A DNA stretch of 64,000 nucleotides from Alphaproteobacteria bacterium UBA830 (GCA_002295635.1 DBHK01000027.1:5920-69919), one strand, 5' to 3'; shown: positions 15,469 through 43,600, counted from the first letter of the stretch. Translations and numbers: made by a program. Notes: generated by a model from the letters alone, not told the origin.

Positions 15469-15490
15469 GATGAGGAACGTACCGACCCCG

Positions 15491-16300
15491 CTATTGGTCT
15501 CGCAGCCTATCCATCAAAGACTTTTCTTGACCACCATCGATCTCGATCTGAGTACCATTGACGAAATGCATCAGCGGCGATGCAAGCATTACGCATAAAT
15601 TAGAAACCTCTTCTGTCTCGGCGATACGTCCCAAAGGAATGGAGGACGGTGCGAGCTTGTCAGCTTCCTCAAATGATAGGTCCATGTCCCGCGCCATCGC
15701 GTTCACGAGGCCGGTCCAACGTTCGGTACGGACAGGCCCCGGATTAACAGCGACAAAGCTGATATTGTTTTTGCCGTATTGTCCCGAAAGCGACATAGTC
15801 AGATTTTGCCCGGCGGCATTGGCGGCACCCGGCGCTATTTCCCAATAAGATGGTTTTACACCGTCATTACCTATCAAGTTTACGACGCGCCCCCCCCCCT
15901 GTTCAACCATGATTGGTAAAACGTAGCGCAAGCAACGGACGTACCCCATGAACTTAAGTTGTAGGGACTGTTCCCAATCATCTTCAGAGAGATGCTCTAT
16001 TACTCCACCCGGCGATGAGCCGGCATTGTTGACCATAATATCGACCCGACCGAGCTGTTTCGCACTTTCTTCGATAAATTTTTTAGCCTGGTCATTATTA
16101 GTTAGATCAGTCGGAATTGCGACGACCTTAACGCTGGTTGCGTCGCGAATTTCTTGTGCTGTCGTTTCCAAAGGCTCAGGGCGCCGAGCGCAGATCGCTA
16201 TGTCGACGCCCTCTTTTGCAAGGCCCCAGGCTATACCTTTGCCGATGCCTTCGCTTCCGCCGGTGATGAGCGCGGTTTTTCCACTCAGTTGTAAATCCAT
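15491..16300 (-). CDS. SDR-family oxidoreductase
   Basis: TGGSEGIGKG Rossmann motif and YxxxK region. Confidence 0.85.
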   Translation of the reverse strand: MDLQLSGKTALITGGSEGIGKGIAWGLAKEGVDIAICARRPEPLETTAQEIRDATSVKVVAIPTDLTNNDQAKKFIEESAKQLGRVDIMVNNAGSSPGGVIEHLSEDDWEQSLQLKFMGYVRCLRYVLPIMVEQGGGRVVNLIGNDGVKPSYWEIAPGAANAAGQNLTMSLSGQYGKNNISFVAVNPGPVRTERWTGLVNAMARDMDLSFEEADKLAPSSIPLGRIAETEEVSNLCVMLASPLMHFVNGTQIEIDGGQEKSLMDRLRDQ

Positions 16301-16329
16301 TTTGTCTCTTCCATTTCTGTTTTTCTAAT

Positions 16330-17187
16330 TCAATGTCTAGGGCTTTTGTGGTTCATCCAATTTCCGTCGGTTGTCGCAGAAAAATATTCTCGAAGCGCCG
16401 TGTTAACGATGTCCGGTTCCTCCATTATGATGGTATGTCCGGTCCGCGGCACAGTCTGAAGGGCCGCAGAGGGGACTGTCCGTTTGAGAAAAAGGCTGCC
16501 ATCCAAACAAGGCTGATCCTCGTCCCCGACAATTACTAGCAGGGGCAGGCTAAAGCTACGGAGGTCTGCCTCCATATCCCACAAGGTGGGGCGGTCTCGC
16601 TGAAGTTTCCGCATTGTGTGAGCGGCACCTTTTGGTGATAGCCCAGCGAGGATTTTTTCAAACGCGGTAAATCCCTCAGGGTCTTTTACTTCGAAAGTGT
16701 GACGCATGGGAAATCGAGCGTATTTGGCTGCGGACTCCGAGATCGGTAATTCTATAAACATTTTCGCAATGTCTTCGCACAACTGACGCGAGGTCTGACG
16801 CTCGTCGGGATGCGACCCCCAGCCACAACCAAGAGCGGAGACTGAAAGGCAACGGTCAGGATACCTGATACCCACATGGAGCGCAGTATATGCACCCATT
16901 GAATGGCCGACGATGTGTGCCTTCTCGATATCAAGCGTATTCATAACTGCGATTGCATCGTCGAGAGCAACATACTGACCATAGCTCTCTTCGCTTTCAG
17001 GTACATCGGACGGGGGGTAGCCGCGCGCGGCGTATGTAATACATCGGTAGACATCGCTCAGTGCAGCGACCTGCTTCGACCAAGTTCGATGATTGCCCGC
17101 GAATTCGTGCATGAAAAGGACGGCGTCGCCCGACCCGACATCCTCATAATACAGTGATGTTCCGTCGATGCTTTCAAGCCTAGGCAA
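16330..17187 (-). CDS. Alpha/beta-fold hydrolase
   Basis: GHSMG nucleophile elbow. 285 aa. Confidence 0.8.
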   Translation of the reverse strand: MPRLESIDGTSLYYEDVGSGDAVLFMHEFAGNHRTWSKQVAALSDVYRCITYAARGYPPSDVPESEESYGQYVALDDAIAVMNTLDIEKAHIVGHSMGAYTALHVGIRYPDRCLSVSALGCGWGSHPDERQTSRQLCEDIAKMFIELPISESAAKYARFPMRHTFEVKDPEGFTAFEKILAGLSPKGAAHTMRKLQRDRPTLWDMEADLRSFSLPLLVIVGDEDQPCLDGSLFLKRTVPSAALQTVPRTGHTIIMEEPDIVNTALREYFSATTDGNWMNHKSPRH

Positions 17188-17332: not shown

Positions 17333-17428
17333 TGGCGGAAAAGAGTGGGAGTCGAACCCACCAGGGACGTCTAACGCCCCTCACCGGTTTTGAAGACCGG
17401 GCGCCCCACCGGGGAACGAATCTCTTCC
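17333..17428 (-). tRNA. selC: tRNA-Sec (anticodon UCA)
   Basis: 96 nt: GGAAGAGAUUCGUUCCCCGGUGGGGCGCCCGGUCUUCAAAACCGGUGAGGGGCGUUAGACGUCCCUGGUGGGUUCGACUCCCACUCUUUUCCGCCA. It has an 8-bp acceptor stem, a UCA anticodon in a CUUCAAA loop, a long variable arm and a GGUUCGACUCC T-arm. Its architecture is near-identical to E. coli selC. Confidence 0.85.
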
Positions 17429-17533
17429 GACGGTATACATGCATAGCAAATTCCTATGTTGGGTGACATGCCTATTGTACCAAATTCATTTTCTTCTAAA
17501 GAAACGACTTTTACCAATCTCTGAAGTTTGGCT

Positions 17534-19459
17534 TCAGTCTTTGTTGAAAGCCTCCTCTGCAGGACGGATTATCTCATGCCCGTCGCCTACGCGGCGGGTG
17601 AATTTGACCTTGTCAAAGAATTCTAAAACCTCGATAGATAGGTTCCGGCCTATTCCCGACGCGTCGCGAAAATTTGCTGCGGTCACCATGCCTTCGTCTG
17701 CGGATGCTGCCACTTTTTCCGCGATCTCGCCTAGCTGGCGCAGGGCATCTGGCTGATAAAATCGGTTTTTTGCTATTCGAATAACGAGACCGTGACGTCC
17801 TGCTCGAACCAGCAGAGACTCGATTTTACTAGGCTCTTTGTCGATTGCTTGCGCGATCTCAACAATAACTGGCGGTCGCAGTCCCCCATTGACTAGAAGC
17901 GGTTTTATTTTATTCCAATTCGAGGCGTCGGCCCCTTGCAGTTTTGGCTTATGCGACAGTAGCCGCACGCCCATACCTTCTTTGACTATGACACCTTCAC
18001 GCACCAGCTCAGCACAAATAGAAGCCGTCGCGTTGCCGGGTAGACGAAGACCTGTGCCCACCAGGATACGGTTCTCGCCAGGTCCAACCGTGTCGGGAGA
18101 TTTTTTATGCCAGGCGCCAAGAGCCTCTAAAACCGCGGTACGGAGGATGTCCCAGCGGTTATGGGAGAAACCTAGCAAGCCTTTCTCGGTTGATATCGAT
18201 TTAATTGGAACAAGCTCTTGTAGAGCCTCCATGTCGGAGTCGGTTAGATTGCGTGCTGAAGCGAAGCGGTCGAGGAAGAGACCTTCGGGTGAGGTTTCCA
18301 GCAAGGCAGTCAGTGCGATACCATCGTCTCCCTCCTCCATCGCTTTTAAGAAAGCTATACGCTCAGGTCTGGCCCGTCCTCGCGCAGGTGGGTAGACGTC
18401 TATGACGCGGCCGCCACCTATCGTTCGTTGCGCAGACTGATCACGAATTATTAACCCGTCACTATGAACCGCGGCCATAGGATGATCGAGTACAAGTTGC
18501 GCGAGCTTATTTTCGCCCGCCGCTATACTTTGCTCTCCAAGAATAGCGACCCGTCCGGTGGACTCTGATGCGCCGAGATGGACATGAACCGGGGTCCAGT
18601 GAGCAAGCGGCCGAGCTTCTGACTGAAGAACCTGAAGCCTTACATCTATTTTTCTTACTGCCGGAGGCGGATGGCCGGTAACGATCCAGTCGCCGCGCTG
18701 TATCAGCCGACTGTCGAGATCCGGCCCTGTAAGATTTAGCGCACAGCGTTGACCTGCGTGTCCGGCGTCGGTTTTTGCATTTTGCGCATGAAGGCCGCGC
18801 ACTCTAACGTCGATCTCTGCACCCAAGACCCGGGCGCCTGCGCCGGTTTTCAGATGACCGGAAAAGGCGGTGCCAGTAACCACAAGCCCTGCGCCGGTAA
18901 CCGCAAAGCATCGGTCGATGGCGAGCCGGAAATTTCCTGTCGACGCGCGTGGTGGCATCTGGGCTGCTGCATCGATGAGGTGTTGTTTTAAATCACTGAT
19001 CCCTTCGCCAGTTAGTCCAGATAGCGGGAAAACGGGAGCTCCATCTAGCGATGTACCGAGTAAAAGCTCGTCAATCTGCTCGGATACCTCGACGGCGCGC
19101 ATATCATCAACCCGGTCGATTTTGGTTAGGGCTACCGCGCCATCTGAAACGCCGAGCAAGTCGAGGATTGCTAGGTGTTCTCTGGTTTGCGGCATCGGTC
19201 CGTCGTCAGCGGCGACAGTGAGTAACGCGAAGTCGATACCGACTACGCCACATAACATATTACGAATAAATTTTTCGTGTCCGGGGACGTCTATAAACCC
19301 GATAGTTTCCGCTCCATCTATCGGAAGATAGGCGAAGCCAAGATCGATGGTCAGATTACGTTTCTTTTCTTCAGGCAGCCGATCGGTATCAACCCCGGTC
19401 AACGATTTTATTAGGAGGGTTTTACCGTGATCAACGTGGCCGGCTGTAGCAACAATCAT
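17534..19459 (-). CDS. selB: Selenocysteine-specific translation elongation factor SelB
   Basis: 641 aa. N-terminal MIVATAGHVDHGKTLLIKSLTGVDTDRLPEEKKRNLTIDLGFAY with GTPase G motifs. Long C-terminal winged-helix region. ATGA overlap with selA. Confidence 0.9.
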   Translation of the reverse strand: MIVATAGHVDHGKTLLIKSLTGVDTDRLPEEKKRNLTIDLGFAYLPIDGAETIGFIDVPGHEKFIRNMLCGVVGIDFALLTVAADDGPMPQTREHLAILDLLGVSDGAVALTKIDRVDDMRAVEVSEQIDELLLGTSLDGAPVFPLSGLTGEGISDLKQHLIDAAAQMPPRASTGNFRLAIDRCFAVTGAGLVVTGTAFSGHLKTGAGARVLGAEIDVRVRGLHAQNAKTDAGHAGQRCALNLTGPDLDSRLIQRGDWIVTGHPPPAVRKIDVRLQVLQSEARPLAHWTPVHVHLGASESTGRVAILGEQSIAAGENKLAQLVLDHPMAAVHSDGLIIRDQSAQRTIGGGRVIDVYPPARGRARPERIAFLKAMEEGDDGIALTALLETSPEGLFLDRFASARNLTDSDMEALQELVPIKSISTEKGLLGFSHNRWDILRTAVLEALGAWHKKSPDTVGPGENRILVGTGLRLPGNATASICAELVREGVIVKEGMGVRLLSHKPKLQGADASNWNKIKPLLVNGGLRPPVIVEIAQAIDKEPSKIESLLVRAGRHGLVIRIAKNRFYQPDALRQLGEIAEKVAASADEGMVTAANFRDASGIGRNLSIEVLEFFDKVKFTRRVGDGHEIIRPAEEAFNKD

Positions 19460-20859
19460 TCGAGAATTTCAAGAGTTGAAAGTTGTGAAAGGAATCCGGG
19501 TTCATCTGCCATACAGCGTAGATCAACGATGAAGGCACCTCCCTGAACGCGTCCAATAACTGGCACTGGCAGACCGCGAAAGGCCCGTACGAGTCGTTCA
19601 ACTGCCGCACCGTTCTTAGTTTCAGGAGTGATTGCGAGGCCCGCGCTAGGAAGTTTGCGGGTCGGTAATGTACCCGAACCGACTTGGCTGTCGCAGTCCA
19701 CCTCTTCGACTTTGGCAAACCCTTTTACGGCTCTAGAGATTGCAGGCCGAATCCGGGAGGCTGTTTCCTGAATATCAGTCACTGACCGGGTAAGCGCACG
19801 CAGCGTGGGCAATCGGTCGGATAGACTATCTGGATCGGAATAAAGACGAAGCACGGCGGATAACGCTGCGATAGTCATTTTGTCACAGCGTAGTGCTCGT
19901 TTTATGGGGTTGCTCTTTAAACGAGTGATGCAGTCTTTGGTACCAACGATGATACCTGCCTGCGGTCCACCCAATAGCTTGTCACCCGAAAATGATACCA
20001 TATCGGCACCGTGCTTTAGGGCTTCCATTGGAGTTGGTTCATGTGGAAGTCCAAGCCGCTTTAGTTCCGTCAGAGTGCCGCTGCCCAGATCGATGGCAAA
20101 TGGAATTCCAGTCTCATGACACAGCTTGGCGAGATCAGTTTCCGGCACCTCCGCGGTGAATCCTTCTACTACATAGTTACTGGTATGGACCTTCATGATC
20201 ATTCCGGTATTCGGTCCGATAGCTGCGGCATAATCCTTTAAATGGGTCCGGTTGGTGGTGCCAACCTCGACCAGTTCACATCCTGACTGTGCCATAATAT
20301 CCGGCATACGGAACGAACCCCCGATCTCTATTAACTCTCCTCGAGATGTAGGTGTTTCCTTACCAAGTGCGAAGGTATTGAGGATCAACATAACTGCCGC
20401 GGCATTATTATTGACGACGGTTGCCGCCTCAGCACCGGTGATTTCACAAAGCTGTGCCTCGACATGGTCATCCCGGTCTCCGCGCTTTCCTTCTTCCAAA
20501 CTATACTCGAGGTTGGTTGCGCTGCGCGCCGCCCGGGAGATGGCTTCAATAGCTTCCTCCGGAAGCGCCGCGCGACCCAAGTTCGTATGAATGACCGTTC
20601 CTGTTAGATTATAGACTGGTCGGAGAGACGGCAAATTCTCCTGCGCCAGACACTCCGCCACTGCATACAATATCTCTGTTTCGTGCGGTATCTTGTTACC
20701 GGAAAGCACAGAACCGCGAATTTCTTCTAGCGTCTTTCGGATGCAATCCGTTACTAATTTGCGGCCATATTCCGAAATCAGCTTCACGGCATTATCCGAA
20801 TTCAACAGGCGATCAACAGACGACAGGCCCGCAAGAGGCGAAGAGGTTTTCTTTGGCAT
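19456..20859 (-). CDS. selA: L-seryl-tRNA(Sec) selenium transferase SelA
   Basis: PLP-dependent. LAGLSSVDRLLNSDNAVKLISEYGRKLVTD aligns with the E. coli SelA N-terminus. Start placed at MPKKTSS. An alternative upstream start at 20937 would abut the prfC stop. Confidence 0.85.
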   Translation of the reverse strand: MPKKTSSPLAGLSSVDRLLNSDNAVKLISEYGRKLVTDCIRKTLEEIRGSVLSGNKIPHETEILYAVAECLAQENLPSLRPVYNLTGTVIHTNLGRAALPEEAIEAISRAARSATNLEYSLEEGKRGDRDDHVEAQLCEITGAEAATVVNNNAAAVMLILNTFALGKETPTSRGELIEIGGSFRMPDIMAQSGCELVEVGTTNRTHLKDYAAAIGPNTGMIMKVHTSNYVVEGFTAEVPETDLAKLCHETGIPFAIDLGSGTLTELKRLGLPHEPTPMEALKHGADMVSFSGDKLLGGPQAGIIVGTKDCITRLKSNPIKRALRCDKMTIAALSAVLRLYSDPDSLSDRLPTLRALTRSVTDIQETASRIRPAISRAVKGFAKVEEVDCDSQVGSGTLPTRKLPSAGLAITPETKNGAAVERLVRAFRGLPVPVIGRVQGGAFIVDLRCMADEPGFLSQLSTLEILE

Positions 20860-20938
20860 GACCGTGAGACAATACTGCTTGAAACGGTGTTGGGAAATGT
20901 CTTGTTGAAACGTGGTAGCAGGGAGAATACCAAACACC

Positions 20939-22698: not shown

Positions 22699-24009
22699 AT
22701 GGAAATGCAGACCGCCACCAAGGTTGGTTACCAGTCTGGTTTCGGAAATGAATTTGCGACCGAAGCACTACCCGGTGCATTACCGGAGGGTCGGAATTCT
22801 CCACAGAAAACGCCGTACGGCCTTTATACGGAACTGATCAGCGGTACAGCCTTTACACAGCCTCGTAACGATAATCTACGGACTTGGCTCTACCGGATAC
22901 GGCCATCGTCTCAGCACGGAAAATTCAAGAAGATTGATAAAAAATTATGGCGCACCCCTACCTTTGATGAAGGAGTGTTGACGCCACAGCAAATACGTTG
23001 GGATCCAATACCTATCCCGGCGGAAGCAACAGATTTGATCGCCGGCATAAAGACCTTGGCGGGTAATGGAGATTCTAAAATCCAATCGGGGATCGGTATC
23101 CACGTTTATTGCGCAAACGTCTCGATGAGTGATCGCTATTTCTACAATGCCGATGGGGAGATGCTGTTCGTTCCCCAGCAGGGCTGCTTGCGACTCGTAA
23201 CAGAAATGGGTGTAGTTGAGGTGGTGCCAGGCCAGATTGCAGTGGTGCCCCGAGGGATAAGATTCTGCGTCGGCCTACCAAATGGGCCATCGCGCGGTTA
23301 TGTATGCGAAAACTTTGGAGCGCCCCTACGACTACCCGATCTCGGACCTATCGGATCTAATGGTCTTGCCAATCCCCGGGATTTTCTTGCACCGGTAGCG
23401 TCGTTTGAAGATCTTGATGGTGATTTTGAACTTGTCGTAAAATTTGGGGGAGATCTCTGGGCTTCTGATATCGACCATTCGCCTTTAGATGTCGTTGCAT
23501 GGCACGGAAATTTGACACCATATAAGTATGATCTCGATAATTTCATGTCTATCGGGTCTATATCCTTCGATCACCCAGACCCGTCTATCTTCACTGTGCT
23601 TACGTCTCCATCTGGCCCGGCAGGGCTGGCCAATGTAGACTTCGTCATTTTTCCGCCACGGTGGCTGGTTGCGGAAAATACCTTCCGGCCACCCTGGTAT
23701 CACCGCAACTTTATGTCGGAATTCATGGGATTGGTGCACGGTCATTACGACGCCAAAGAGGAGGGCTTTGTGCCTGGGGGGGCCAGCTTACACAATATGC
23801 ATTCCGCTCACGGACCTGATCGAGAGACCTATGAAAAGGCGACAAAGTCTGATTTGAAACCGATGCATTTAGCAGACACGATGGCTTTTATGTTTGAGAC
23901 CCGCTATCCGATCAAGTTGACGGAATGGGGTGCGAATGTCCCCCAGATCCAACCGGATTATCAAGATTGCTGGCAAGGACTAAGTAAAAACTTCGACGGG
24001 AAAAGATAA
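22699..24009 (+). CDS. hmgA: Homogentisate 1,2-dioxygenase
   Basis: 436 aa. The N-terminal [19 protein letters not shown] motif is diagnostic of homogentisate 1,2-dioxygenase. Confidence 0.9.
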
Positions 24010-24011
24010 TA

Positions 24012-25334
24012 ATGACGATTCTTAATGAAACCCACGACCCTGCGCTTAATAGCTGGGTTAATAGCGCAAATGAGAATGGCTCCGACTTTCCAGTACAGAA
24101 TCTACCCTTTGGCGTGTACACGGACCCTCAAACTGATGCGGGCAAAATAGGTATTGCCATTGGCGATATGATTTTAGATGTAACGGCCGCCCGGATAGAG
24201 GGCCTAATCAGCGGCGCTGCAGATGATGCTGCGGGGGCCTGTGCCGGCGATACCCTTAACCATTTGATGGCGCTGGGTGGTCGGCACTGGTCGGCGCTGC
24301 GCGCGGCCGCATCTAAAGTATTGCGAAACGATACGGATGAGGGCGAGATCGCTAGAACGGTCGCCGAGGATATTCTTGTTTCTCAGTCCGATGTTGCAAT
24401 GCAACTACCGGCTCGGATAGGAGATTATACCGATTTCTATTCATCGATCTTTCATGCGACTAATGTCGGAAAAATGCTCCGGCCGGATAATCCGTTAATG
24501 CCGAATTATAAATATATCCCTGTTGCTTACCATAGCCGGGCGTCGTCGATTGTTCCAAGCGGCGAAGTATGTAAGCGCCCAGTAGGTCAAACCAAGGCGG
24601 CGGATTTGGATGCACCTTCCTTTGGCCCTTCGAGGGCGATCGATTACGAGACTGAGATCGGGTTTTTCATCGGCCCTGGCAATCCGCTGGGCCAGCCTAT
24701 CGATATATCCGAGGCAGAAGATCATATTTTCGGCCTATGTATCTTGAACGATTGGTCCGCTCGAGACATACAAGCATGGGAATACCAGCCTCTAGGGCCA
24801 TTTCTTGCCAAAAGCTTCTCGTCGCATATATCGCCTTGGGTGGTGACGATGGAGGCCTTATCGCCGTTCCGTTGTGCTGCTTATGAGCGTCCGGAATCCG
24901 ACCCCAACCCGTTACCTTACCTATCGTCAGCAGAGAATGAGACTAAAGGTGGATTCGATGTCCACATCGAAGTATCGATCGCATCGGAACAGATGCGGGA
25001 TGCCGGCATGAGTCCCCATCTTTTGGCGAAGACCAACATGCGTCATCTTTATTGGAATGTTTTCCAAATGTTAGTTCACCATACCTCTAACGGATGCAAC
25101 ACGCGGCCCGGTGACATGATGGGGACCGGAACGATATCGGGGCCGAATAAGGATTCTCTTGGATCGATCTTGGAAATCACCAAGCGTGGTTCTGAGCCGG
25201 TGCCTTTACCATCCGGCGAGGAGCGCAAATTCCTTGCCGATGGCGATGAGGTGATCATGCGGGCCTGGTGCGAGGCCGAGGGGTCGCGGCGAATCGGATT
25301 CGGCGATTGCCGCGGATTAATTGAGGGTGCTTAG
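24012..25334 (+). CDS. fahA: Fumarylacetoacetase
   Basis: 440 aa. N-terminal FAA-hydrolase domain (FPVQNLPFGVY) followed by the catalytic FAH domain. Placed immediately downstream of hmgA. Confidence 0.9.
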   Translation: MTILNETHDPALNSWVNSANENGSDFPVQNLPFGVYTDPQTDAGKIGIAIGDMILDVTAARIEGLISGAADDAAGACAGDTLNHLMALGGRHWSALRAAASKVLRNDTDEGEIARTVAEDILVSQSDVAMQLPARIGDYTDFYSSIFHATNVGKMLRPDNPLMPNYKYIPVAYHSRASSIVPSGEVCKRPVGQTKAADLDAPSFGPSRAIDYETEIGFFIGPGNPLGQPIDISEAEDHIFGLCILNDWSARDIQAWEYQPLGPFLAKSFSSHISPWVVTMEALSPFRCAAYERPESDPNPLPYLSSAENETKGGFDVHIEVSIASEQMRDAGMSPHLLAKTNMRHLYWNVFQMLVHHTSNGCNTRPGDMMGTGTISGPNKDSLGSILEITKRGSEPVPLPSGEERKFLADGDEVIMRAWCEAEGSRRIGFGDCRGLIEGA

Positions 25335-25806: not shown

Positions 25807-25898
25807 GGATGAGCCCTTAGGAAAATTCTTATCTACCGGTTATGGGGTAGTGCTCACCTGTATGTTAGTCTTTGCGCCATCGAACAATGGGGATCTAT

Positions 25899-28211
25899 AT
25901 GATCGGAGAACGGATAAAACGCATCGAAGATCCAGCGCTATTGCGCGGTGCAGCTATTTTCGTGGACGACATACATTTACCGGGAATGCTGCACGTAGCA
26001 TTCCTGCGTAGCCCCCATCCGCATGCAAAGATCCAATCGATCGATGCAAGGGCGGCGAATGCAATGTCCGGTGTTAAAGCAGTATATACGCTGGCCGACT
26101 TATCGCCGCATTTGCAAATGGATCGTCTTCCCCTCCAATTCCCAACAACAGCATTCCGCCCTGATGTAACCCCCTGGGTACTGGCGGGTGAAGAGGTGTG
26201 CCATGTTGGAGAGGCCATCGCTATGGTTGTTGCCGATACACGTTACATTGCGGAAGACGCGGTAACAGTGATTGAGGTGGACTACGACCCGCTACCGTCC
26301 GTCGCAGGCTGTGCAGCGGCGTTCTTGGAAGATGCCCCACGGGTGCATGATGATCAGGATGACAATGTTTTGCTGCGGTTCGGGCAATCCTACGGTAATG
26401 CTAGCGCGGCATTCGCAAATGCACCTCATGTCTTTTGCGAACGCTTTATACAGCACCGGGGCGCTGCTCATCCGATAGAGGGACGCGGCGCGGTGGCGCG
26501 CTACGATGTCTTGAATGATTCCACAACATTGTGGTCGTCAACCCAGATGTCGCATGAAGTAAGGTCGGCAATAGTCCAAATGTTTGGGGTAGATGAAGGG
26601 CGTATCCGAGTTGTTGCACCGGATGTCGGCGGTGGTTTCGGGTCAAAATTTATTGCTTATTCGGAAGAAGTCTTGATTGCGCTGGCCGCTCGCCTTCTGG
26701 ACACCCCAATAAAATGGATTGAGGACAGGCGTGAACATTTTACATCAGCGATCCAAGAGCGTGAACAGGACTGGACGATGGAAATCGCCGTTGATGATGA
26801 AGGCCGTATTCTCGGCGTACGCGGTTCCATGCTGTCAGACCAAGGCGCGTATACCCCACAAGGTGTAAATATGGCGTATAATGCGTCGACTGGGGTGCCT
26901 GGCCCCTACATAGTGCCAAACTACGAAATTGATGTGCATGTTATTGAGACTAACGCGGTCGCGGCGGCGCCGGTAAGAGGCGCTGGCTATCCTGAGGGTA
27001 ATTATACGATGGAGCGCCTTCTGGACCGTGTAGCACAAGGGCTTGACCTTGATCGAGCAGAAATCAGGCGGCGTAATCTAATCCCTGCGGAGAAGATGCC
27101 TTACGAAACACCTCTAAAGACCCGTGCCGGGTCGCCGGTGATGGCTGACAGTGGCGATTTTTTGAAATGCCAACAGATCGCGTTAGATCGCATTGACTAT
27201 GCTGGATTTTCAAAACGCCAGATAGCGGCGCGTATGGAGGGAAGGTATCTCGGTATTGGTCTTGCAAACAGCCTGAAAGGAACAGGGCGCGGACCTTTCG
27301 AGTCCGGAGCTGTCCGGATTGAGCGGTCTGGAAAAGTGCGGGTATTTACCGGCGCGCTTGCGATGGGGCAGGGGCTAAAAACCATGCTTGCGCAGGTGAC
27401 ATCTGAGCAGCTCGGTATTCCGGCAGACGAAATAGAAGTTATAGCCGGAGATACCGGCACGATTGCACTTGGGCTTGGCGGATTTGCTAGCCGCCAGACC
27501 GTCACGGCTGGATCATCAGTCCATGGTGCAGCTAAAGAGGTCCGCGGAAAGCTACTAAAAATGGCAGCGCATTTATTGGAAGCTGCCGAAGAAGATCTAG
27601 AGATTTCCGACAGCGTTGTTCGGGTAATCGGCTCAGATGTAAATATATCGGTCCGGGAAATAGCGGAAGCTAGCTCTGGTGCACCAGGATATTCTATGCC
27701 TGGCGGTATCGAACCAGGTCTTGAGGCATCGGAAAACTTCAAGCCGCCAGCTTTGACCTATAGTAACGGAGTACAGGCGGTCGAGGTTGAAGTGGACATT
27801 GGTACCGGCGAGGTCAGGTTTTTGAATTACGTCGTAGTTAGCGATTGCGGGACGTTGATCAACCCCATGATAGTTGATGGACAGATCGCCGGCGGGGTGG
27901 TCCATGGAATAGGTAACGCGTTGTTCGAATGGATGGGTTATGATGATAGTGGGCAACCGCTTACCACAAATTTTGGTGAGTACACCATGCCTACCGCTAC
28001 TGAGCTTATCGAACTAGATTTACAGTATCAGCATTCGCCGACACCGTTGAACCCGCTTGGCGTGAAGGGTGTGGGAGAGACTGGGACGGTGCCGGCTGCT
28101 GCTGCCATCGTGTCAGCTGTTGAAAATGCGCTAGAGCCATTTGGAGCACGGATTACCGATTATCCGGTTATGCCCTCATCGATCGTGAACATCGTGCGAG
28201 CGGCCGGATGA
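25899..28211 (+). CDS. Xanthine dehydrogenase-family molybdopterin-binding large subunit (orphan; no adjacent small/medium subunits)
   Basis: Start at MIGERIKRIEDPALLRG, by alignment with the first large-subunit gene. Molybdopterin-binding domains are present, including the PVRGAGYPEG loop. Confidence 0.85.
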   Translation: MIGERIKRIEDPALLRGAAIFVDDIHLPGMLHVAFLRSPHPHAKIQSIDARAANAMSGVKAVYTLADLSPHLQMDRLPLQFPTTAFRPDVTPWVLAGEEVCHVGEAIAMVVADTRYIAEDAVTVIEVDYDPLPSVAGCAAAFLEDAPRVHDDQDDNVLLRFGQSYGNASAAFANAPHVFCERFIQHRGAAHPIEGRGAVARYDVLNDSTTLWSSTQMSHEVRSAIVQMFGVDEGRIRVVAPDVGGGFGSKFIAYSEEVLIALAARLLDTPIKWIEDRREHFTSAIQEREQDWTMEIAVDDEGRILGVRGSMLSDQGAYTPQGVNMAYNASTGVPGPYIVPNYEIDVHVIETNAVAAAPVRGAGYPEGNYTMERLLDRVAQGLDLDRAEIRRRNLIPAEKMPYETPLKTRAGSPVMADSGDFLKCQQIALDRIDYAGFSKRQIAARMEGRYLGIGLANSLKGTGRGPFESGAVRIERSGKVRVFTGALAMGQGLKTMLAQVTSEQLGIPADEIEVIAGDTGTIALGLGGFASRQTVTAGSSVHGAAKEVRGKLLKMAAHLLEAAEEDLEISDSVVRVIGSDVNISVREIAEASSGAPGYSMPGGIEPGLEASENFKPPALTYSNGVQAVEVEVDIGTGEVRFLNYVVVSDCGTLINPMIVDGQIAGGVVHGIGNALFEWMGYDDSGQPLTTNFGEYTMPTATELIELDLQYQHSPTPLNPLGVKGVGETGTVPAAAAIVSAVENALEPFGARITDYPVMPSSIVNIVRAAG

Positions 28212-35543: not shown

Positions 35544-36122
35544 CTAGGCGCCCACCGTTTCTTTTCTGAACCGATAGAATTCGGTTGGTGGGGCTGGCCG
35601 GGTGTCGGTCCAAGACTTTAACGCGGCATGCGCATCGTTCCGATGCTCTTGGCGTTTCGATTCGCCGATTGTCTCACAGGTAATTTCAAGGCGAATGCCG
35701 TTTGGATCAAAGAAATATATCGATTTGACGAAACCGTGATCTGTGACACCTACGACTTTGATATCTGCATCTTCAAGTCTCACCTTCCAGGTCTCTACCT
35801 CGTCAACCGTATCCACATGCATAGCGAAGTGGTTGACCCAAGACGGGGTCTGCGGGTCCGGGATAGATGCGGTTTCGTCGCCAAGATCGAAAAACGCTAT
35901 ATAGCTACCGTTAGCGAATTCGAAAAACAGATGCACATACGGGTCGGACGCCCCTGTGGATGGCACCTCGTTAGCTTGGATCACATGAGCAAGAGGGAGG
36001 CAAAGAAGGTCTTCGTAAAAGCTTCGCGTTTCTTCGGCGTTGCGGCAACGATAAGCGTAATGGTGCAGCCCACTGATCCGATTCAGTGCTGTCATTTGAT
36101 CCTCTCTTTCATAATGCGGCAT
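35544..36122 (-). CDS. VOC family protein
   Basis: ISGLHHYAYRCRNAEETRSFYEDLL ... IYFFDPNGIRLEI. Confidence 0.7.
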   Translation of the reverse strand: MPHYEREDQMTALNRISGLHHYAYRCRNAEETRSFYEDLLCLPLAHVIQANEVPSTGASDPYVHLFFEFANGSYIAFFDLGDETASIPDPQTPSWVNHFAMHVDTVDEVETWKVRLEDADIKVVGVTDHGFVKSIYFFDPNGIRLEITCETIGESKRQEHRNDAHAALKSWTDTRPAPPTEFYRFRKETVGA

Positions 36123-36628
36123 GCAGTTCCGCGGTGGAGACTCTTAGGCGATTTCCGGCCAGTTTGGATCCTGACCTCTGAGAGTAGTTTTCAAAAATTC
36201 AGTCGATTGACGCCTTTTCCTCTGGACTTCCATCTTCAAGAACCTTCACATCCAAACAGAATGTATAACGGGGCCAATATCCCTTTTTTTATATTAACAA
36301 TTTCATTCGGTCCTGCATATTCACGCACCGTAGCGTGAAATCACCTTAAAACTTGTTAGCGCCGCTATCGTGCATGTTGCAAGCCCCCATCGAAGCTGGA
36401 AAAGGGACAGGATCCTATGCTTTTAGTATTAGGCCTTGAAAAACTATGGTTTTGTACAAGCTCGGTTCGTTATCGTTTATGAAGACCGTTTGGTTTACAG
36501 CGAACATAGCCCGTGCAAAAAAAACACAATGTTGTTCACCGGTTCAAGGCACTGCAAGAGGCAAGGAATTGGAGCGCATCATCCGCAGCGTCCTCAGTTG
36601 CTTTAAAATCGGGTATCCTGAAAATATC

Positions 36629-37858
36629 TTATTTGATAGCTTCTTCCTTTCGGACACTATCGAGTAGGGAAGACCGCATGAGCCAAGCCTTGGCTTTAAC
36701 TGGGTCTTCCGCGGCAGCCCGTAGCTGTATTTGGTTGGAGCGGATGGCTTCTGGGTCTTTTTCCTCGATGCGTTTTTTGTTTTCAATAGTCACGCTTTGA
36801 AGAAACTCGGTAGCTAGCTGATGCCGCTGACGATGGTAGCGTTCGAAAATATCGTCGTTTGCGCGTCCGAACCACACGTCTCCTATTTTTTTTGTAATAT
36901 TCATGCAGTCGTGGATGCCGGTATTCAGGCCAAGACCGCCGAGCGGGTTATTCAGATGCGCCGCGTCGCCGGCCAGGAAGATGCGTTCAACCCGGAATCT
37001 GTCGGCCACTCTTTGGTTTACCGTGTAAAGATTGCGATGCAGGATGTCATTGTAATCCATGTCTTCTCGTAGTCCGCGAATACGCTTAGTGACACCATTA
37101 TCAGAGAGCAGGTCTTCATCCTCTTCGTGTCCCTCCGTCGGGAACAGCGTTCGCCATATTCCCTCGTCTTCGTCGCCCGGAACTTTAAAAACAGCAAACC
37201 ACTCATCTGGATCCATAACGTAATTTCTATGTAGGTATCCATCACTTGTAGCGAAATCATGTTCCGAGGTCAGAACTAGGAAACGTTCGTCCCATGTGAA
37301 CCCTGACATGAACACACCCAATCCAATACGGATGGTGGACCGGCCACCATCGCAGGCCAAAAGGTAACGGCCTTCGACCTTTTGTATGTCGCTCTCTGGG
37401 TCCTTGTAGATGACAGTGACGCCGTCGTAGTCTTGAGAAAATGCGATTACTTCCGACCCTAAGCGCACGTCAGCGATATCATGGGTCTTTACCGCTACTA
37501 GCGCGTCGCGGGTCAGCTTCCACTGTTCATACTGAATCGCGAAAGGGAAATCGGTTTCGTCACTGATGTGTTTCATATCAAAAACTGCGATGATTTCTTG
37601 AGAATTGCGGTCACGAAACTGGAAGGCAGGTGCCATTAAACCCCGACTTTTAAGTCCATCAGCAAGATCCAGGGAGTCGAGCATTTCTAGCGTTGACGCG
37701 TGAATCGTTGCGGCTCGAGGGTCCCGGGGGGGCTCTTTGAAAGCCTCTAACACAGTTACGGGAACGCCTTGGCGGACGAGGGAAAGGGCCGCAACCATAC
37801 CGACCGGCCCACCACCGCAAATGATCACACGTTCATTCTTGCTCATACTATGCAACAT
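36629..37858 (-). CDS. FAD-dependent aromatic-ring monooxygenase (PHBH-like, PF01494 type)
   Basis: VIICGGGPVGMVAALSL GxGxxG motif, internal DG fingerprint (LLACDGGRS) and C-terminal GD motif (FLAGDAAH). Confidence 0.85.
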   Translation of the reverse strand: MLHSMSKNERVIICGGGPVGMVAALSLVRQGVPVTVLEAFKEPPRDPRAATIHASTLEMLDSLDLADGLKSRGLMAPAFQFRDRNSQEIIAVFDMKHISDETDFPFAIQYEQWKLTRDALVAVKTHDIADVRLGSEVIAFSQDYDGVTVIYKDPESDIQKVEGRYLLACDGGRSTIRIGLGVFMSGFTWDERFLVLTSEHDFATSDGYLHRNYVMDPDEWFAVFKVPGDEDEGIWRTLFPTEGHEEDEDLLSDNGVTKRIRGLREDMDYNDILHRNLYTVNQRVADRFRVERIFLAGDAAHLNNPLGGLGLNTGIHDCMNITKKIGDVWFGRANDDIFERYHRQRHQLATEFLQSVTIENKKRIEEKDPEAIRSNQIQLRAAAEDPVKAKAWLMRSSLLDSVRKEEAIK

Positions 37859-37910
37859 AACGAACCGGCCGTGTCATTAATAGGAAATGGTTCTTACGCT
37901 TGAGAAGATT

Positions 37911-38555
37911 TTATTTGGTGCCGAACATCCTGTCGCCGGCATCTCCCAGACCAGGTCGAATATATGAATCATCATCTAACTCTCGGTCGATCGCGCTGGT
38001 GATTACCTGAACATCAGGATGCGCCTGGGTAAACGCCTTCAAACCCTCAGGGGCCGCCACGACGCAAACGAATTTTATTCGCTCCGCTCCGCACTGTTTG
38101 AGACGGTGGACTGCAGCTATAGCGGAACCCCCGGTTGCGAGCATTGGATCCACGACGATACATCGTCTCTCGTTCAGATTATCTGGTAATTTTAAGTAGT
38201 ATTCCACCGGTACTTTCGTATCTGGATCACGATACAACCCGATATGCCCTACCCGAGCCGCCGGGATTAGATCCAACATGCCATCGAGCAAACCGTTACC
38301 CGCACGGAGAATCGAAATGATGCAGAGTTTTCGCCCTTCCAGCTTTGGACCGGTGGTAACCTCCAGCGGAGTTTCGATTGTGACTGTTTCGGTTTCAAAG
38401 TCACGGCAAACTTCGTAAGCGAGTAGATGGCTTATCTCGCGAAGGAGCTGACGAAAGTCAGCTGCACCGGTTCCTTGATCGCGTATCATCGTCAGCTTGT
38501 GCTGTATTAGCGGGTGATCAACTACCTCTACAGAGGCATTTGTTTTTTTTTCCAA
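37911..38555 (-). CDS. upp: Uracil phosphoribosyltransferase (URC6 equivalent)
   Basis: 214 aa. [13 protein letters not shown] ... ILRAGNGL ... PRPP-binding [11 protein letters not shown]. Confidence 0.9.
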
Positions 38556-38567
38556 GTTGATTCCTCC

Positions 38568-39800
38568 TTAAAAAACTGTAGCGTCGCTATCTAAGCGGAT
38601 CGGGGGACTGCCATCCGACCTAAGTTCCCATGCGATTTTGCGTCCGGCCGACCATGTACCCCCCTGCAGAATATGACCGAGTGTTAGACCCCCGATGTCC
38701 AAATTCAGTGACTTTCGAACCTCTTCCGCTAGTAAGTCTAAAAGTGCAACAGTCAAAGCTCTCCACTCAACGATTAGTTCGCTTTCAGGCTTATGCGCTA
38801 CAGAGAGTAGGGATTCATCTTTTAGACGCAAAACCCCAGTATCGATAAAAAGCCCACCATTTCGATATTCTGCGAGGCCAGTCAGCCCATCCAAGTTTGA
38901 GACTGTTGCTTCCATCTGTTCAAGAGGTTCGACTAGGGAATAAGAGAGCCATTGTGACAACTTATGGAACGGCACAATACAATCTGTCTCATCCTCGCGC
39001 GATAACGCACGGTGATGACCGACATCACCAAGCGCGTTGCCAGCTATCCTCACTGGCGATGGCCAGATATCCATAAGAGATCCAAGTACGGCGACGAGTA
39101 TATCGCGAGCCTCTAGATTCGGACGTGCGGCCAATTTCAGTATCAGGTTGCCGGGACGGATCTCATTGTCACGGGCATAAAAAGAAGAATGTTTTTCTAT
39201 CGCGTACCCGAGTTTTTGAAGTAACCCAGCCCGCTGTTGGAGACCAACAAGGGGATTAGTACCAGTTACTTGAAATGCGTCAGCTAGCATTCGTGCCGAT
39301 ATCTTCGTGAGCGCCGCCGCGTCCGCTCGAAGCGGGTCATCTCCATAATCGCTGAGCATACCAGATTCAAACAACCTTAGACTGGCTAACGCCAGCCCTT
39401 CTGACCTGCCGATTTTCAGGCCGGTAGAGTCATCGGCATAAACCCAATCCGGACCGGCTCCGGCATCCAGCAATACTGAGACGACAGCAAGATCGCCGGC
39501 AGCGATTGCTAAACGGTCTCCTGACAACCCAAACGACATTGAAAGGTCTTCCCAAAGATCAGTCCCGCCGAGTTCGAAGTGCCGCCAGCGGCTATGAAGG
39601 GGGATTTCGAGGGTTGGATAATTTGACTCTATTTCTCCGACAACACGGGATGTTGGATTATGTAAGTTCGCTATGTCCACCTGGAACCAGGGCAGGCCGC
39701 CATCTAACCCGATACGGAATAGATCATTACAGCGCTCACGCACGGCCTCCGGCGTCAGTAGTCCGTTTACAGGATTAGGGGTAGGTACCGCCAACGTCAA
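38568..39800 (-). CDS. DUF1688 / URC4-like protein of the URC uracil-catabolism pathway
   Basis: 410 aa of unknown biochemistry. Operonic (overlapping start and stop) with the URC1-like gene and upp. Family assignment is from recalled architecture, not a search. Confidence 0.55.
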   Translation of the reverse strand: MTLAVPTPNPVNGLLTPEAVRERCNDLFRIGLDGGLPWFQVDIANLHNPTSRVVGEIESNYPTLEIPLHSRWRHFELGGTDLWEDLSMSFGLSGDRLAIAAGDLAVVSVLLDAGAGPDWVYADDSTGLKIGRSEGLALASLRLFESGMLSDYGDDPLRADAAALTKISARMLADAFQVTGTNPLVGLQQRAGLLQKLGYAIEKHSSFYARDNEIRPGNLILKLAARPNLEARDILVAVLGSLMDIWPSPVRIAGNALGDVGHHRALSREDETDCIVPFHKLSQWLSYSLVEPLEQMEATVSNLDGLTGLAEYRNGGLFIDTGVLRLKDESLLSVAHKPESELIVEWRALTVALLDLLAEEVRKSLNLDIGGLTLGHILQGGTWSAGRKIAWELRSDGSPPIRLDSDATVF

Positions 39801-41041
39801 AACAACGCGCGTCCTTTTGTGGCTTTCAGCCCCTTTTCGTCCTTTATTTTGGTGCTCGTGAAATAGCCCGCCGCTTTTTTGGCCTCCATCTCCACTTTCG
39901 CGTCGTCGGGGATCAGCTCCTCGGGCAGATCTATGCGCTCACCGATCTCGATCCCTTGTCCGGCAAGAGCGTCATGTTTCATGTCGCTCATTGAGGCGAA
40001 CCGGTCAATTCGTTCGACTCCTAGCCAGTGGAATATATCGGGCATCAGTTCCTGGAATCGCGCATCCTGAACCCCAGCGACGCATTCTGTGCGTTCAAAA
40101 TATTTTGCCGCGTTGTCACCCTCTTCTTGCCGTTTTCGGGCATTGTAGACCAAAAACTTGGTGACCTCGCCGAGAGCCCGACCTTCCTTACGATTGTAAA
40201 TGACGAGGCCGTTACCGCCTGCCTGCGCCATCTCGACACAAATCTCGATACCGTGTGTTAGATAGGGTCGGCAAGTACAGATGTCGGATCCGAAAACATC
40301 CGAACCATTACATTCATCGTGGACCCGACAGGCTAACGGAATGGATCTATCCGATAGCGTGGTGGGAATACCGAAAATATAGGCCGACAGACCGCCTATG
40401 GGGGGTAGGAAAACCTCAAGGTCGCTTCGGGTAACGAGTTCTGGGTACATGCCACCCGTGTATGTGAATAAAGCCTGGCGCAGGGTCGCTATATCGCAAC
40501 CCAGGCGTGTAGCCATTCCAGGCAGGTGCCATACCGGATCGACCGCTATCTTAGTAACATGTACGTCCCCATTTCCCATCAGAATTTTGCCATCGGCCTT
40601 GAGTCGCCCGAGCTCAATAGCTTCGCGAAGCTCAAGCATTGAGAGACGTGCCTGCGTGACTGCAATGGTAGGTCTAATATTAAGTCCCGCCTCTAGCTGT
40701 TCGCTAAAGCACTCGGTAATCATGTGTCCGAACGGATCTAACGAGACGATCTTTCCATGATCCGACCATTGTGGATAGGGACCAATTTTTGCGACCGGCA
40801 TAGTGTTGTGTAAATCGGGTCGGAAATCAGGGTCTAGCCGTCCCGCGGCGACGGAAGCCGCGAGATAGACTGAGTAACTACCCGAATGGGTGCCGATGGT
40901 ATTCCGCATCGCCGGGTCTGTTACAGTGCCGATAACCGGGCCGCGTTTGGTCGGATCGGTGGCACCCCAATTAATTACGGGTTGGTCGTTACCGCGCGTG
41001 GAAGGGTGCGATGTAAGTACGATATGCTCGTGAGCGCTCAT
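39797..41041 (-). CDS. URC1-like GTP cyclohydrolase II homologue (N-terminal GTP_CH_N domain plus GCH II domain)
   Basis: The zinc-binding motif CRVHDECNGSDVFGSDICTCRPYL matches RibA [20 protein letters not shown]. The 414-aa length with an about 200-aa N-terminal extension is typical of URC1, not RibA. Confidence 0.8.
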   Translation of the reverse strand: MSAHEHIVLTSHPSTRGNDQPVINWGATDPTKRGPVIGTVTDPAMRNTIGTHSGSYSVYLAASVAAGRLDPDFRPDLHNTMPVAKIGPYPQWSDHGKIVSLDPFGHMITECFSEQLEAGLNIRPTIAVTQARLSMLELREAIELGRLKADGKILMGNGDVHVTKIAVDPVWHLPGMATRLGCDIATLRQALFTYTGGMYPELVTRSDLEVFLPPIGGLSAYIFGIPTTLSDRSIPLACRVHDECNGSDVFGSDICTCRPYLTHGIEICVEMAQAGGNGLVIYNRKEGRALGEVTKFLVYNARKRQEEGDNAAKYFERTECVAGVQDARFQELMPDIFHWLGVERIDRFASMSDMKHDALAGQGIEIGERIDLPEELIPDDAKVEMEAKKAAGYFTSTKIKDEKGLKATKGRALF

Positions 41042-41204
41042 TACGACAACTCATTTTTCAAAATAAGCTAACTATAATAGTCTAAAAAATAAGTTTTTTG
41101 GCTAAATTTTATTGGCACAGCGGAAATAGTACCCATTGAAGAGGTTTCGCTCTTCGAACAGCACGCTATAATTATTAGTAACCAAACAGAAATGGGGAAC
41201 GGCA

Positions 41205-42377
41205 ATGCAGTGCTTCCTATTCCATCTAATGCCCTACGCCAGCTTGGATCTGGACTACGACAAGGAATACAAAGCCTCTTGGGTAGTCTATCCCAATTCT
41301 AATTTTGACCCGAAGGTTGGGCACTATCTCTATAATACTTACCTTGATGAGCTAGAGATGGGCGATGAGCTGGGCTTTGATGGGCTCGTAGTCAATGAAC
41401 ATCATCAAAATGCTTATGGGTTGATGCCATCACCGATTGTGCCGGCTGCCGCATTAGCACGACGAACGTCAAAAGCGAAAATAGCAGTTCTTGGTAACGC
41501 ATTTGGTATACGCGAACACCCTCTGACCCTTGCGGAGGAACACGCGATGATTGATTGCATTACCGGCGGCCGCCTGATCAGCGGCATGGTTCGGGGCATT
41601 GGGGCGGAATATTATTCTATGGGCGCTAACCCAGCCTTTAGTCATGAGAGATTTAACGAAGCCCATGATTTAGTTGTTCGGGCTTGGACTGACGAAGGTC
41701 CCTTTGCTTTTGAAGGCAAACATTATCACTTTGAGTATGTGAACGTGTGGCCACGTCCGTTCCAGAAACCGCATCCACCTATTTGGTGTCCCTCTCAGGG
41801 ATCTCTGGAAACCATTGAATGGGCATCACACGCCGATCGCAAGTATACCTATCTGCAAACTTATAGCCCTTTCGAGGCAGTAAAGAAGTTTCTGAATCTT
41901 TATCGAGAGATTGCGCGAGACATGCACGGTTATGAGGCGGCTGATTCTCAAGTAGGATGGGCCGCTCCTATTTATGTCGGCGAGACTGACAAAAAGGCTA
42001 TAGAAGAGGCGGGTCCGCATATGGAAGCGTTCTTCAACAAATTTCTGCGAATGACACCGGAAATGTTGTTACCGCCGGGTTACTTAAGTCTCCGTTCCTA
42101 CAAGAATGTGATGAAGCATAAAGGCGGTTTGTCTAAGGTGCGCTCAATAGAAGAACTGATGGAAACGGGGATTGTTATTTGCGGCGGTCCAGACACCGTT
42201 CGTGAGCGTCTGGAATACTGCCACCGCGAAGCGGGTTTCGGCACTTTCCTCGGGATGTTCCAGATAGCATCTATGCCGCATGAGATGACGGTTAACAGCA
42301 TGAGACGTTTCGCAGAAGATGTAATGCCGGCCGCAAAGCAATTTGGAGCGGTTGGTGACAGGATTGCGGCTGAGTAA
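41205..42377 (+). CDS. LLM-class (luciferase-like) flavin-dependent oxidoreductase, paralogue 1
   Basis: 390 aa. LFHLMPY...GFDGLVVNEHHQNAYGLMPSP TIM-barrel LLM signature. Confidence 0.8.
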   Translation: MQCFLFHLMPYASLDLDYDKEYKASWVVYPNSNFDPKVGHYLYNTYLDELEMGDELGFDGLVVNEHHQNAYGLMPSPIVPAAALARRTSKAKIAVLGNAFGIREHPLTLAEEHAMIDCITGGRLISGMVRGIGAEYYSMGANPAFSHERFNEAHDLVVRAWTDEGPFAFEGKHYHFEYVNVWPRPFQKPHPPIWCPSQGSLETIEWASHADRKYTYLQTYSPFEAVKKFLNLYREIARDMHGYEAADSQVGWAAPIYVGETDKKAIEEAGPHMEAFFNKFLRMTPEMLLPPGYLSLRSYKNVMKHKGGLSKVRSIEELMETGIVICGGPDTVRERLEYCHREAGFGTFLGMFQIASMPHEMTVNSMRRFAEDVMPAAKQFGAVGDRIAAE

Positions 42378-42403
42378 AGGCATTATACCCGGCAGGAGAA
42401 CCC

Positions 42404-43600
42404 ATGAAAATCTTTCTTTTTCACCTTATGCCCTATGCTTATGTCGACCCAGAATACGACAAGGAATACGATACCTGCTGGGTAACTTACCCGAATAGTA
42501 AATTTGACCCTGAAAAAGGTCACGAGCTCTATAATAGGTATTTGGACGAACTGGAATACGCCGAAGAACTTGGCTTCGACGGCGTTTGCGTTAACGAGCA
42601 TCATCAGAATGCATACGGACTGATGCCGTCGCCCGTTGTGATGGCGTCTGCGCTGGCGACCAAGACAGAGCGAGTAAAAATAGCAATCCTCGGTAATGCG
42701 TTCGGGATCCGGGACCATCCTCAGACCTTGGCTGAAGAACACGCGATGATTGACTGTATCACCGGTGGCCGGCTGATAAGCGGCATGGTACGAGGCTTGG
42801 GAGCGGAATATTATTCGCTTGGTTCCAACCCTGCATTTAGCCATGAGCGATTTCATGAGGCTCACGATCTAGTTATCCGCGCATGGACCGAGGAGGGACC
42901 ATTCCCATTTGAAGGTAAGCATTATCACTTCGATTATGTAAACACCTGGCCGCGTCCATTCCAAGACCCGCATCCACCGATTTGGGTACCCAGCCAAGGG
43001 TCCACCGAGACGATCGAATGGTCAGCCCATCCCGACCGTAAATACACCTACCTGCAAACGTATTCGCCGTTTCAAAACGTTGTGCGTTTTCATAACGCTT
43101 ATCGAGACGTAGCGCACAGGCATGGGTACGCCGCAAATTCTGAACAGCTCGGATGGGCGGCACCGGTCTATGTTGGTGAGACAGATAAAAAGGCTATTGA
43201 AGAAGTCAGGCCACACGTGGAGCTTTTTTTCAATAAGCTACTGCGGTACTCAATCTCAATGCTCTTGCCGCCAGGCTACATGTCTGTTGAGTCATATAAA
43301 CGTGTTCTGAAAACAAAATCGAGTTTGGTCTCCACCCACACAGTGGAGTCTCTGATGGAGCGGGGAGTTATCATTGTTGGTAGCCCGGATACTGTCCGCA
43401 AAAAACTTTCAGAATGTCACGAACAGGTTGGCCTTGGATATTTCCTTGGGATGTTCCAGATTGCAAGCATGTCTCATGATTTGGCTACGGCTTCTATGAG
43501 ACGTTTTGCCGAGGAAGTTATGCCGGCCGCTATGGATTTGGAAGGTGCCGGCCAGTGGGAGCCTAATTCAGAAGAGGTGCCGAGCCAGGCGGCGGAATGA
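42404..43600 (+). CDS. LLM-class flavin-dependent oxidoreductase, paralogue 2
   Basis: 398 aa. Roughly 60-65% identical by eye to the upstream paralogue and co-linear with it. Confidence 0.8.
   Translation: MKIFLFHLMPYAYVDPEYDKEYDTCWVTYPNSKFDPEKGHELYNRYLDELEYAEELGFDGVCVNEHHQNAYGLMPSPVVMASALATKTERVKIAILGNAFGIRDHPQTLAEEHAMIDCITGGRLISGMVRGLGAEYYSLGSNPAFSHERFHEAHDLVIRAWTEEGPFPFEGKHYHFDYVNTWPRPFQDPHPPIWVPSQGSTETIEWSAHPDRKYTYLQTYSPFQNVVRFHNAYRDVAHRHGYAANSEQLGWAAPVYVGETDKKAIEEVRPHVELFFNKLLRYSISMLLPPGYMSVESYKRVLKTKSSLVSTHTVESLMERGVIIVGSPDTVRKKLSECHEQVGLGYFLGMFQIASMSHDLATASMRRFAEEVMPAAMDLEGAGQWEPNSEEVPSQAAE

Follow-up and report, generated by a model that had tools for sequence, protein, structure and literature searches.

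Within a stretch of 64,000 nucleotides from Alphaproteobacteria bacterium UBA830 (GCA_002295635.1 DBHK01000027.1:5920-69919; hereafter the window), positions 36,629 to 43,600 hold a locus for uracil catabolism (URC) that is probably a standard bacterial URC1-URC4-upp operon, lodged in a variable slot of the local gene order beside unrelated flavoenzyme genes. The URC locus is of a known, widespread kind, and flavoenzyme genes of this type adjoin it in one marine lineage only; the locus itself is routine, and the chief interest lies in a hypothesis for the whole URC4 family (DUF1688). All other URC steps have a mechanism assigned or a structure solved, and for this last one a structure model now provides a concrete prediction that is cheap to test. 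The six open reading frames (ORFs) named in an earlier note on this DNA, prepared from the sequence alone, are all present where it placed them; with the intergenic region between the two divergent gene groups, they are arranged as follows:

36629..37858, minus strand: group A flavin adenine dinucleotide (FAD) monooxygenase, PnpA/HspB-like (PF01494)
37911..38555, minus strand: uracil phosphoribosyltransferase (UPRT), URC6/upp (PF14681), the third gene of the operon
38568..39800, minus strand: DUF1688/URC4 homolog (PF07958), a predicted N-glycosidase with the Qng1 fold and (phospho)ribosylurea as substrate
39797..41041, minus strand: URC1-type cyclohydrolase with GTP_CH_N and GTP cyclohydrolase II (GCH II) domains (PF12471 and PF00925), the first gene of the URC operon
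41042..41204: AT-rich divergent intergenic region of 163 bp, in which URC1 and LLM1 each have promoter-like elements of their own
41205..42377, plus strand: luciferase-like monooxygenase (LLM) flavin oxidoreductase 1, LLM1 (PF00296)
42404..43600, plus strand: LLM flavin oxidoreductase 2, LLM2 (PF00296), tandem paralog of LLM1

The URC1-like, DUF1688/URC4 and UPRT genes form one operon, a claim of the earlier note that was fully supported, and the arrangement is widely conserved in bacteria. Profile searches established the family memberships directly and showed that its labels for the URC1 type (PF12471 plus PF00925), DUF1688 (PF07958), UPRT, the FAD monooxygenase and the LLM proteins were all correct. 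The overlapping start and stop codons that it described exist between URC1 and DUF1688, where a 4-nt overlap (TTGA) is the sole overlap in the operon; between DUF1688 and UPRT there is instead a 12-nt spacer that contains a GGAGGA ribosome-binding site after the DUF1688 stop. The UPRT assignment is supported by PF14681 (E = 2.7e-77) and by the models NF001097 (286 bits; cut-off 114) and TIGR01091 (267 bits; cut-off 208). An identical DUF1688 protein was found on a JGI/Tara contig, and the most similar loci come from marine metagenome contigs and from metagenome-assembled genomes (MAGs) labeled Alphaproteobacteria; no plasmid matched the region in a megablast search, and an Rfam scan found no RNA element within the cluster.

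The URC1 homolog matches GTP_CH_N (PF12471) at E = 1.3e-76 and GTP_cyclohydro2 (PF00925) at E = 4.3e-13, reaches 715 bits against the NCBIfam model NF005536 (cut-off 403), and aligns over 412 positions with PDB entries 7EJ3 and 7EEV at 62% identity (E = 8.5e-167). It contains a C-x10-C-x-C motif, whose spacing we take to be that of the RibA zinc ligands. The gene product is a probable UTP cyclohydrolase: a paper on this activity (Zhang et al., ACS Catal 2021;11:8895) is cited for the URC pathway in PMC12507026, and 7EJ3 and 7EEV probably represent the bacterial enzyme of that paper, with which the window protein shares full-length similarity, both domains and the zinc motif. The two entries are deposited as ‘GTP cyclohydrolase II’. 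With this paper and with structures of close homologs, the earlier note is out of date where it calls the chemistry of Urc1 largely unresolved. The shared deposition name, which NCBIfam also applies to the closest relatives, and the conserved zinc site would be compatible with a non-catabolic trio in which the GCH II homolog is a RibA variant, upp serves salvage, and DUF1688 is a passenger. Such a trio is highly improbable; RibA models score 43–56 bits on the URC1 homolog, far under their cut-offs and far from the 715 bits of NF005536, and its N-terminal domain, PF12471, is one that only the URC1 type has. The near-universal linkage to DUF1688 and upp, the uracil induction of the trio in Schizosaccharomyces pombe, the genetic evidence of urea release in Lachancea kluyveri, and the N-glycosylase fold of DUF1688, which suits a nucleotide-derived substrate, argue in the same direction.

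The distribution of the URC core was determined by scanning one genome per species with a 43-protein DUF1688 alignment. Outside the marine clade to which the window belongs, 79 loci were recovered; in nearly all of them a URC1 homolog (60–68% identity) is located directly upstream of DUF1688, and in most upp lies directly downstream. The order of URC1, DUF1688 and UPRT holds almost throughout a set of 80 genome loci and is kept within the marine clade. Hosts, which are diverse Alphaproteobacteria and Cyanobacteria, include Bradyrhizobium, Bosea, Microvirga, Kaistia, Brevundimonas, Microcoleus and Nostoc; with the window, a marine alphaproteobacterial lineage joins the long list of URC1-URC4-upp carriers. 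Beyond the trio no broadly recurring neighbor was detected, and no real cluster occurred in more than about nine of the loci; the most relevant neighbor was a cytosine-deaminase-like amidohydrolase, found near URC in seven loci by eye, and longest-ORF clustering in high-GC loci produced many antisense, arginine-rich artefacts. Conservation of URC1 and URC4 across bacteria and fungi has been described (PMC3869809); S. pombe, too, keeps these three genes in a cluster, and uracil induces them there (PMC2174524). The three families correspond to URC1/urg1, URC4/urg3 and URC6/urg2 of L. kluyveri and S. pombe, clustered as in the latter; unlike its yeast counterparts, the window version is a bacterial operon with translational coupling, and a URC2-type regulator, the URC3,5 urea amidolyase, a URC8 reductase and a uracil permease were not found in the scanned 64 kb. 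Pfam scans of the window ORFs of at least 150 amino acids likewise detected neither a urease nor a urea carboxylase or allophanate hydrolase, and no regulator adjoins the operon, in agreement with the earlier note on the regulator and the amidolyase; genes for urea use or regulation may sit elsewhere in the source genome.

The window DUF1688 protein (410 amino acids) matches PF07958 over its full length (E = 1.4e-129; residues 14–410 against profile positions 2–420 of 420), and its membership in this family, on which the earlier interpretation depended, is secure. The family comprises 2,223 clusters at 50% identity (E ≤ 0.001), from which the 43 diverse proteins of the alignment were taken. 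Sequence and profile searches of the PDB with DUF1688 returned nothing significant. The AlphaFold2 model of the protein (pLDDT 94.5, pTM 0.93) retrieved Qng1/DUF2419 chains alone in a Foldseek search (11 hits with E values between 7e-10 and 5e-8, followed by a gap up to E 0.47), and the modeled structure has a predicted two-lobe helix-hairpin-helix glycosylase fold of the Qng1 type; the link to Qng1 came from this fold comparison and not from the sequence or profile searches. DUF1688 is a sister family of PF10343 (Q_salvage), not a member: 25 of the 43 aligned proteins match PF10343 weakly and two exceed its gathering score (P0185 and P0186, 27.3 bits against a cut-off of 25). Compared to Qng1/DUF2419 (PDB 7UK3, 7U91, 7UGK), DUF1688 proteins are 14–19% identical and about 90 residues longer, and their genomic context is URC, not queuosine salvage.

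Qng1 splits the N-glycosidic bond of queuosine 5'-monophosphate with an active site composed of K199, D231-Y232, W302 and the free carboxylate of the invariant C-terminal Tyr323; C-terminal tags abolish its activity (PMC9881137). A putatively comparable set of residues is conserved in DUF1688: K280 and W383 (each in 42 of 43 sequences), E311-Y312 (43/43), and a final Phe in all 43 sequences (F410 in the window protein), an invariant aromatic last residue as in Qng1. The spacing from Lys to the acidic-Tyr pair is 31 residues in DUF1688 and 32 in Qng1, and onward to Trp 72 and 71. Judged by this spacing, Glu takes the position of the catalytic Asp, and Gln or Glu that of the base-recognizing D298; the queuine-binding Asp is not kept. 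Because the Qng1 fold is accompanied by matching motifs, we propose URC4 to be a (phospho)ribosylurea N-glycosidase that would free urea and ribose (5-phosphate). If so, a tag at the C-terminus of DUF1688 would probably cost the enzyme its activity, as in Qng1. It could be argued instead that DUF1688 is, like Qng1, a salvage glycosylase for a modified nucleotide with a queuosine-like or other base. This is improbable in view of the low identity to Qng1, the replacement at the D298 position and the invariant operon linkage to URC1 and upp; moreover, urc4 mutants reportedly accumulate ribosylurea. In published accounts, URC1 and URC6 turn uracil into ribosylurea and 3-hydroxypropionate, and URC4 breaks ribosylurea down to urea (PMC7530994). 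A literature search that missed most subscription journals found no report of a link between DUF1688 and Qng1; the Qng1 paper (PMC9881137) mentions neither DUF1688 nor URC4, and none of the papers that mention DUF1688 appears, from its title or abstract, to treat Qng1 or its enzymology.

As a separate observation, DUF1688 diverges much faster than its operon partners and the flanking genes when the same relatives are compared: identities to L003, L004, L006 and L009, four related loci, are 52–70% for DUF1688, 78–90% for URC1, 71–86% for UPRT, 87–93% for LLM1 and 76–91% for Hbd.

The N-glycosidase proposal would complete a five-step route for the operon. UPRT would convert uracil and phosphoribosyl pyrophosphate to UMP, and housekeeping kinases would raise UMP to UTP. 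The URC1-type zinc cyclohydrolase would then open the uracil ring of UTP hydrolytically and remove C4-C5-C6, with pyrophosphate and ribosylurea 5'-phosphate as products and with the three-carbon fragment proceeding to 3-hydroxypropionate; DUF1688/URC4, through its modeled Qng1 fold, would cut the C1'-N bond to yield urea and ribose 5-phosphate; and the urea would be consumed by enzymes whose genes lie in other parts of the genome.

Lineage-specific gene order probably explains why the LLM pair and the FAD monooxygenase adjoin this operon, and they are probably not members of its pathway. LLM1 and LLM2 are 70% identical, and both belong to PF00296 (Bac_luciferase), the TIM-barrel superfamily that includes RutA, the LLM enzyme that opens the uracil ring in the Rut pathway. 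From this relationship and from the divergent arrangement across the intergenic region, the earlier note derived a possible hybrid or novel pyrimidine pathway with extra oxygenation steps. In its full form, this model would make the FAD monooxygenase and the LLM pair, the latter conceivably a heterodimer like LuxAB, integral to URC and co-regulated with it from the divergent promoter. A hybrid of this kind is unlikely, and the comparative data lend it no support. The RutA model TIGR03612 gives 23.5 bits for LLM1 and 18.8 bits for LLM2 against a cut-off of 498.3, which speaks against the RutA-like role that had been suggested, and Pfam scans found no rutB-G genes beside the pair (isochorismatase, RidA, RutD-type, nitroreductase, RutF), nor is a flavin reductase adjacent. 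The LuxAB alpha and beta models NF052254 and NF052255 reach 52–66 bits against cut-offs of 500–600, so that the pair falls outside the LuxAB families, and no specific NCBIfam model was found for LLM1. In the URC route as it is understood, ring removal and urea release are hydrolytic steps that need no oxygenase.

Genomic distribution separates the two gene groups further. Of the 79 URC loci that do not belong to the marine clade, none has the LLM pair or the FAD monooxygenase within 10 kb. In the metagenome scan, every locus with upstream DNA in which LLM1 is at least 85% identical carries URC1-DUF1688-UPRT, with Hbd and electron-transfer flavoprotein (ETF) genes on the opposite side, and URC genes are absent beside LLM homologs of 73% identity or less (0 of about 55 loci). 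LLM orthologs at 85% identity are also found without URC neighbors, in loci L001, L002 and L089; in L001 and L089 the LLM pair adjoins a trypsin-PDZ protease, and in L002 a single LLM gene adjoins an epimerase/MMPL cluster. Tandem LLM pairs recur in further URC-free loci (L126, L145, L147, L160, L163, L167). The LLM family is highly conserved, the top 120 matches all having at least 62% identity, and it has other conserved partners: across 68 loci of the wider family these are alpha/beta-hydrolase (38), short-chain dehydrogenase/reductase (SDR; 30), enoyl-CoA hydratase (20), MarR (15) and family III CoA-transferase (15), with a molybdenum hydroxylase as an occasional partner. Homologs that are 61–71% identical (L090–L093, L119, L162 and others) repeatedly share a cluster with MarR, enoyl-CoA hydratase, alpha/beta-hydrolase and SDR genes, which family III CoA-transferase and molybdenum hydroxylase genes often join; the cluster looks like a conserved catabolic module. 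An alpha/beta-hydrolase and an SDR encoded elsewhere in the window (15491-17187) were considered as displaced partners of the LLM family and rejected, being only 25–28% identical. The LLM genes are probably transcribed as a unit of their own, and the comparative evidence places them outside the URC module.

The expectation that LLM-URC adjacency would recur was borne out within the clade, where it is kept in about 20 loci, and failed in the 79 URC loci outside it. The window and its marine relatives have a gene order of about 20 kb in common that consists of AMP-ligase, FAD_binding_2, PrpF, NIPSNAP, two glyoxalases, URC, the LLM pair, Hbd, ETF-alpha/beta, DUF4743 and a DEAD helicase; therefore, the LLM-URC adjacency reflects synteny at the level of the clade and is uninformative for the hybrid pathway. 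It carries no functional signal of its own, because Hbd, ETF, NIPSNAP, glyoxalase and PrpF are also conserved around it. The slot that the glyoxalase(-AtaL) gene and the LLM genes enclose is occupied in at least three ways: the FAD monooxygenase and URC in the window, MaoC, CoA-transferase, LLM and FAD_binding_3 genes in L089, and CDP-OH-transferase, MMPL and epimerase genes in L002. The locus shows how synteny across a clade can pass for a functional gene cluster. The FAD_binding_3 gene before the LLM pair in L089 raised the idea of an ancestral module of FAD monooxygenase and LLM genes into which URC was inserted; this was rejected, since the L089 gene has no match to the window monooxygenase at a coverage of at least 50%.

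As the earlier note had stated, the FAD monooxygenase follows the URC operon on the same strand, starting 52 nt past upp; this spacer has no obvious Shine-Dalgarno sequence. The protein matches PF01494 (FAD_binding_3) over residues 10–354 (E = 2.2e-61, 208 bits), and its best PDB matches, over the full length, are the group A monooxygenases PnpA (6AIN, E = 7e-50) and HspB (7DA9, E = 4e-42). It appears to have a separate phenol- or hydroxypyridine-type function and is probably independent of URC. The gene is missing from clade members that have URC and the LLM pair (L006, L110, L112, L115), and it stands apart from both elsewhere: orthologs at 74% identity are located among PsiE, Rieske and CobW genes, and homologs that are 50–58% identical (L097–L099) occur together with genes for Amidohydro_1, AA_synth (PF06684), an amidase, an aldehyde dehydrogenase, GntR and binding proteins of the NMT1 type, in clusters that may serve the degradation of N-heterocycles or aromatics. 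These distant homologs suggest N-heterocycle or aromatic catabolism, not URC.

Several points weigh against a plain URC operon with unrelated neighbors. Every clade locus that has upstream DNA, approximately 20 in all from metagenomes and MAGs, keeps the divergent LLM-URC junction over 163 bp, even where identity has fallen to 71% for ETF-alpha and 52% for DUF1688, which leaves room for a functional or regulatory LLM-URC link specific to the clade. No terminator is predicted in the 52-nt gap between upp and the FAD monooxygenase, two genes on the same strand that may be co-transcribed. A gene for urea utilization is absent among the scanned window ORFs. The assignment of 7EJ3 and 7EEV to the UTP cyclohydrolase paper is our inference. 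The window DUF1688 protein shows no match to PF10343 at E ≤ 1, and the proposed equivalence of K280, E311, W383 and F410 to the catalytic residues of Qng1 is drawn from motif spacing, not from residue-level superposition. As a caveat that applies throughout, the enzymatic activities are predictions from sequences and a structure model. The conserved junction and the possible co-transcription would also suit a clade-specific recruitment, in which the LLM pair, with the FAD monooxygenase where present, is co-regulated with URC and oxidizes a pyrimidine-derived or N-heterocyclic intermediate; candidate substrates would be a 5-substituted uracil, the C3 fragment or a ureido compound. If true, this would constitute a clade-specific, oxygenase-extended URC variant; we regard it as unlikely, and a standard URC operon beside unrelated flavoenzymes is the preferred reading.

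The intergenic region has the size and composition described in the earlier note (approximately 160 bp and AT-rich); it measures 163 bp, and its G+C content is 34%, compared with 51% across the window. A perfect TATAAT at 41167-41172 on the plus strand, 33 nt before the LLM1 ATG, falls in an ATTATA core (the complement of TATAAT) shared without change by all five aligned relatives of the clade, and a GCGAAACC block near this core is largely conserved among five clade members. On the plus strand, in the segment 41139-41172 that also includes the TATAAT box, the block of the five clade members reads GAGGTTTCGC, the reverse complement of GCGAAACC, about 20 nt upstream of TATAAT; it could be a putative regulator site for the LLM pair. 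Separate AT-rich elements adjoin URC1, and the five-member alignment gave no indication of an operator shared by URC1 and LLM1. Promoter and terminator consensus scans remained at or below the expectation from shuffled sequences.

A degraded pseudogene of the AtaL-like family (PF08982) at 36115-36507 on the minus strand separates the glyoxalase gene from the FAD monooxygenase; it is 37% identical to the intact gene of L004, with four in-frame stops and an internal deletion. Loci L003, L004 and L089 have one or two intact AtaL copies.

Elsewhere the window contains a selenocysteine-insertion set (17333-20937, minus strand), two molybdenum-hydroxylase loci (within 9387-17187, minus strand, and at 25872-28211, plus strand), and genes of homogentisate catabolism:

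10402-14041, minus strand: three-subunit molybdenum hydroxylase, flanked by amidohydrolase, amidase, SDR and alpha/beta-hydrolase genes
17333-17428, minus strand: tRNA-Sec
17534-19459, minus strand: SelB
19456-20937, minus strand: SelA
22699-25334: homogentisate dioxygenase and fumarylacetoacetase
25872-28211, plus strand: lone molybdenum-hydroxylase large subunit of 779 amino acids

The neighborhood represented by the window is accordingly one with many genes for the catabolism of aromatics and heterocycles.

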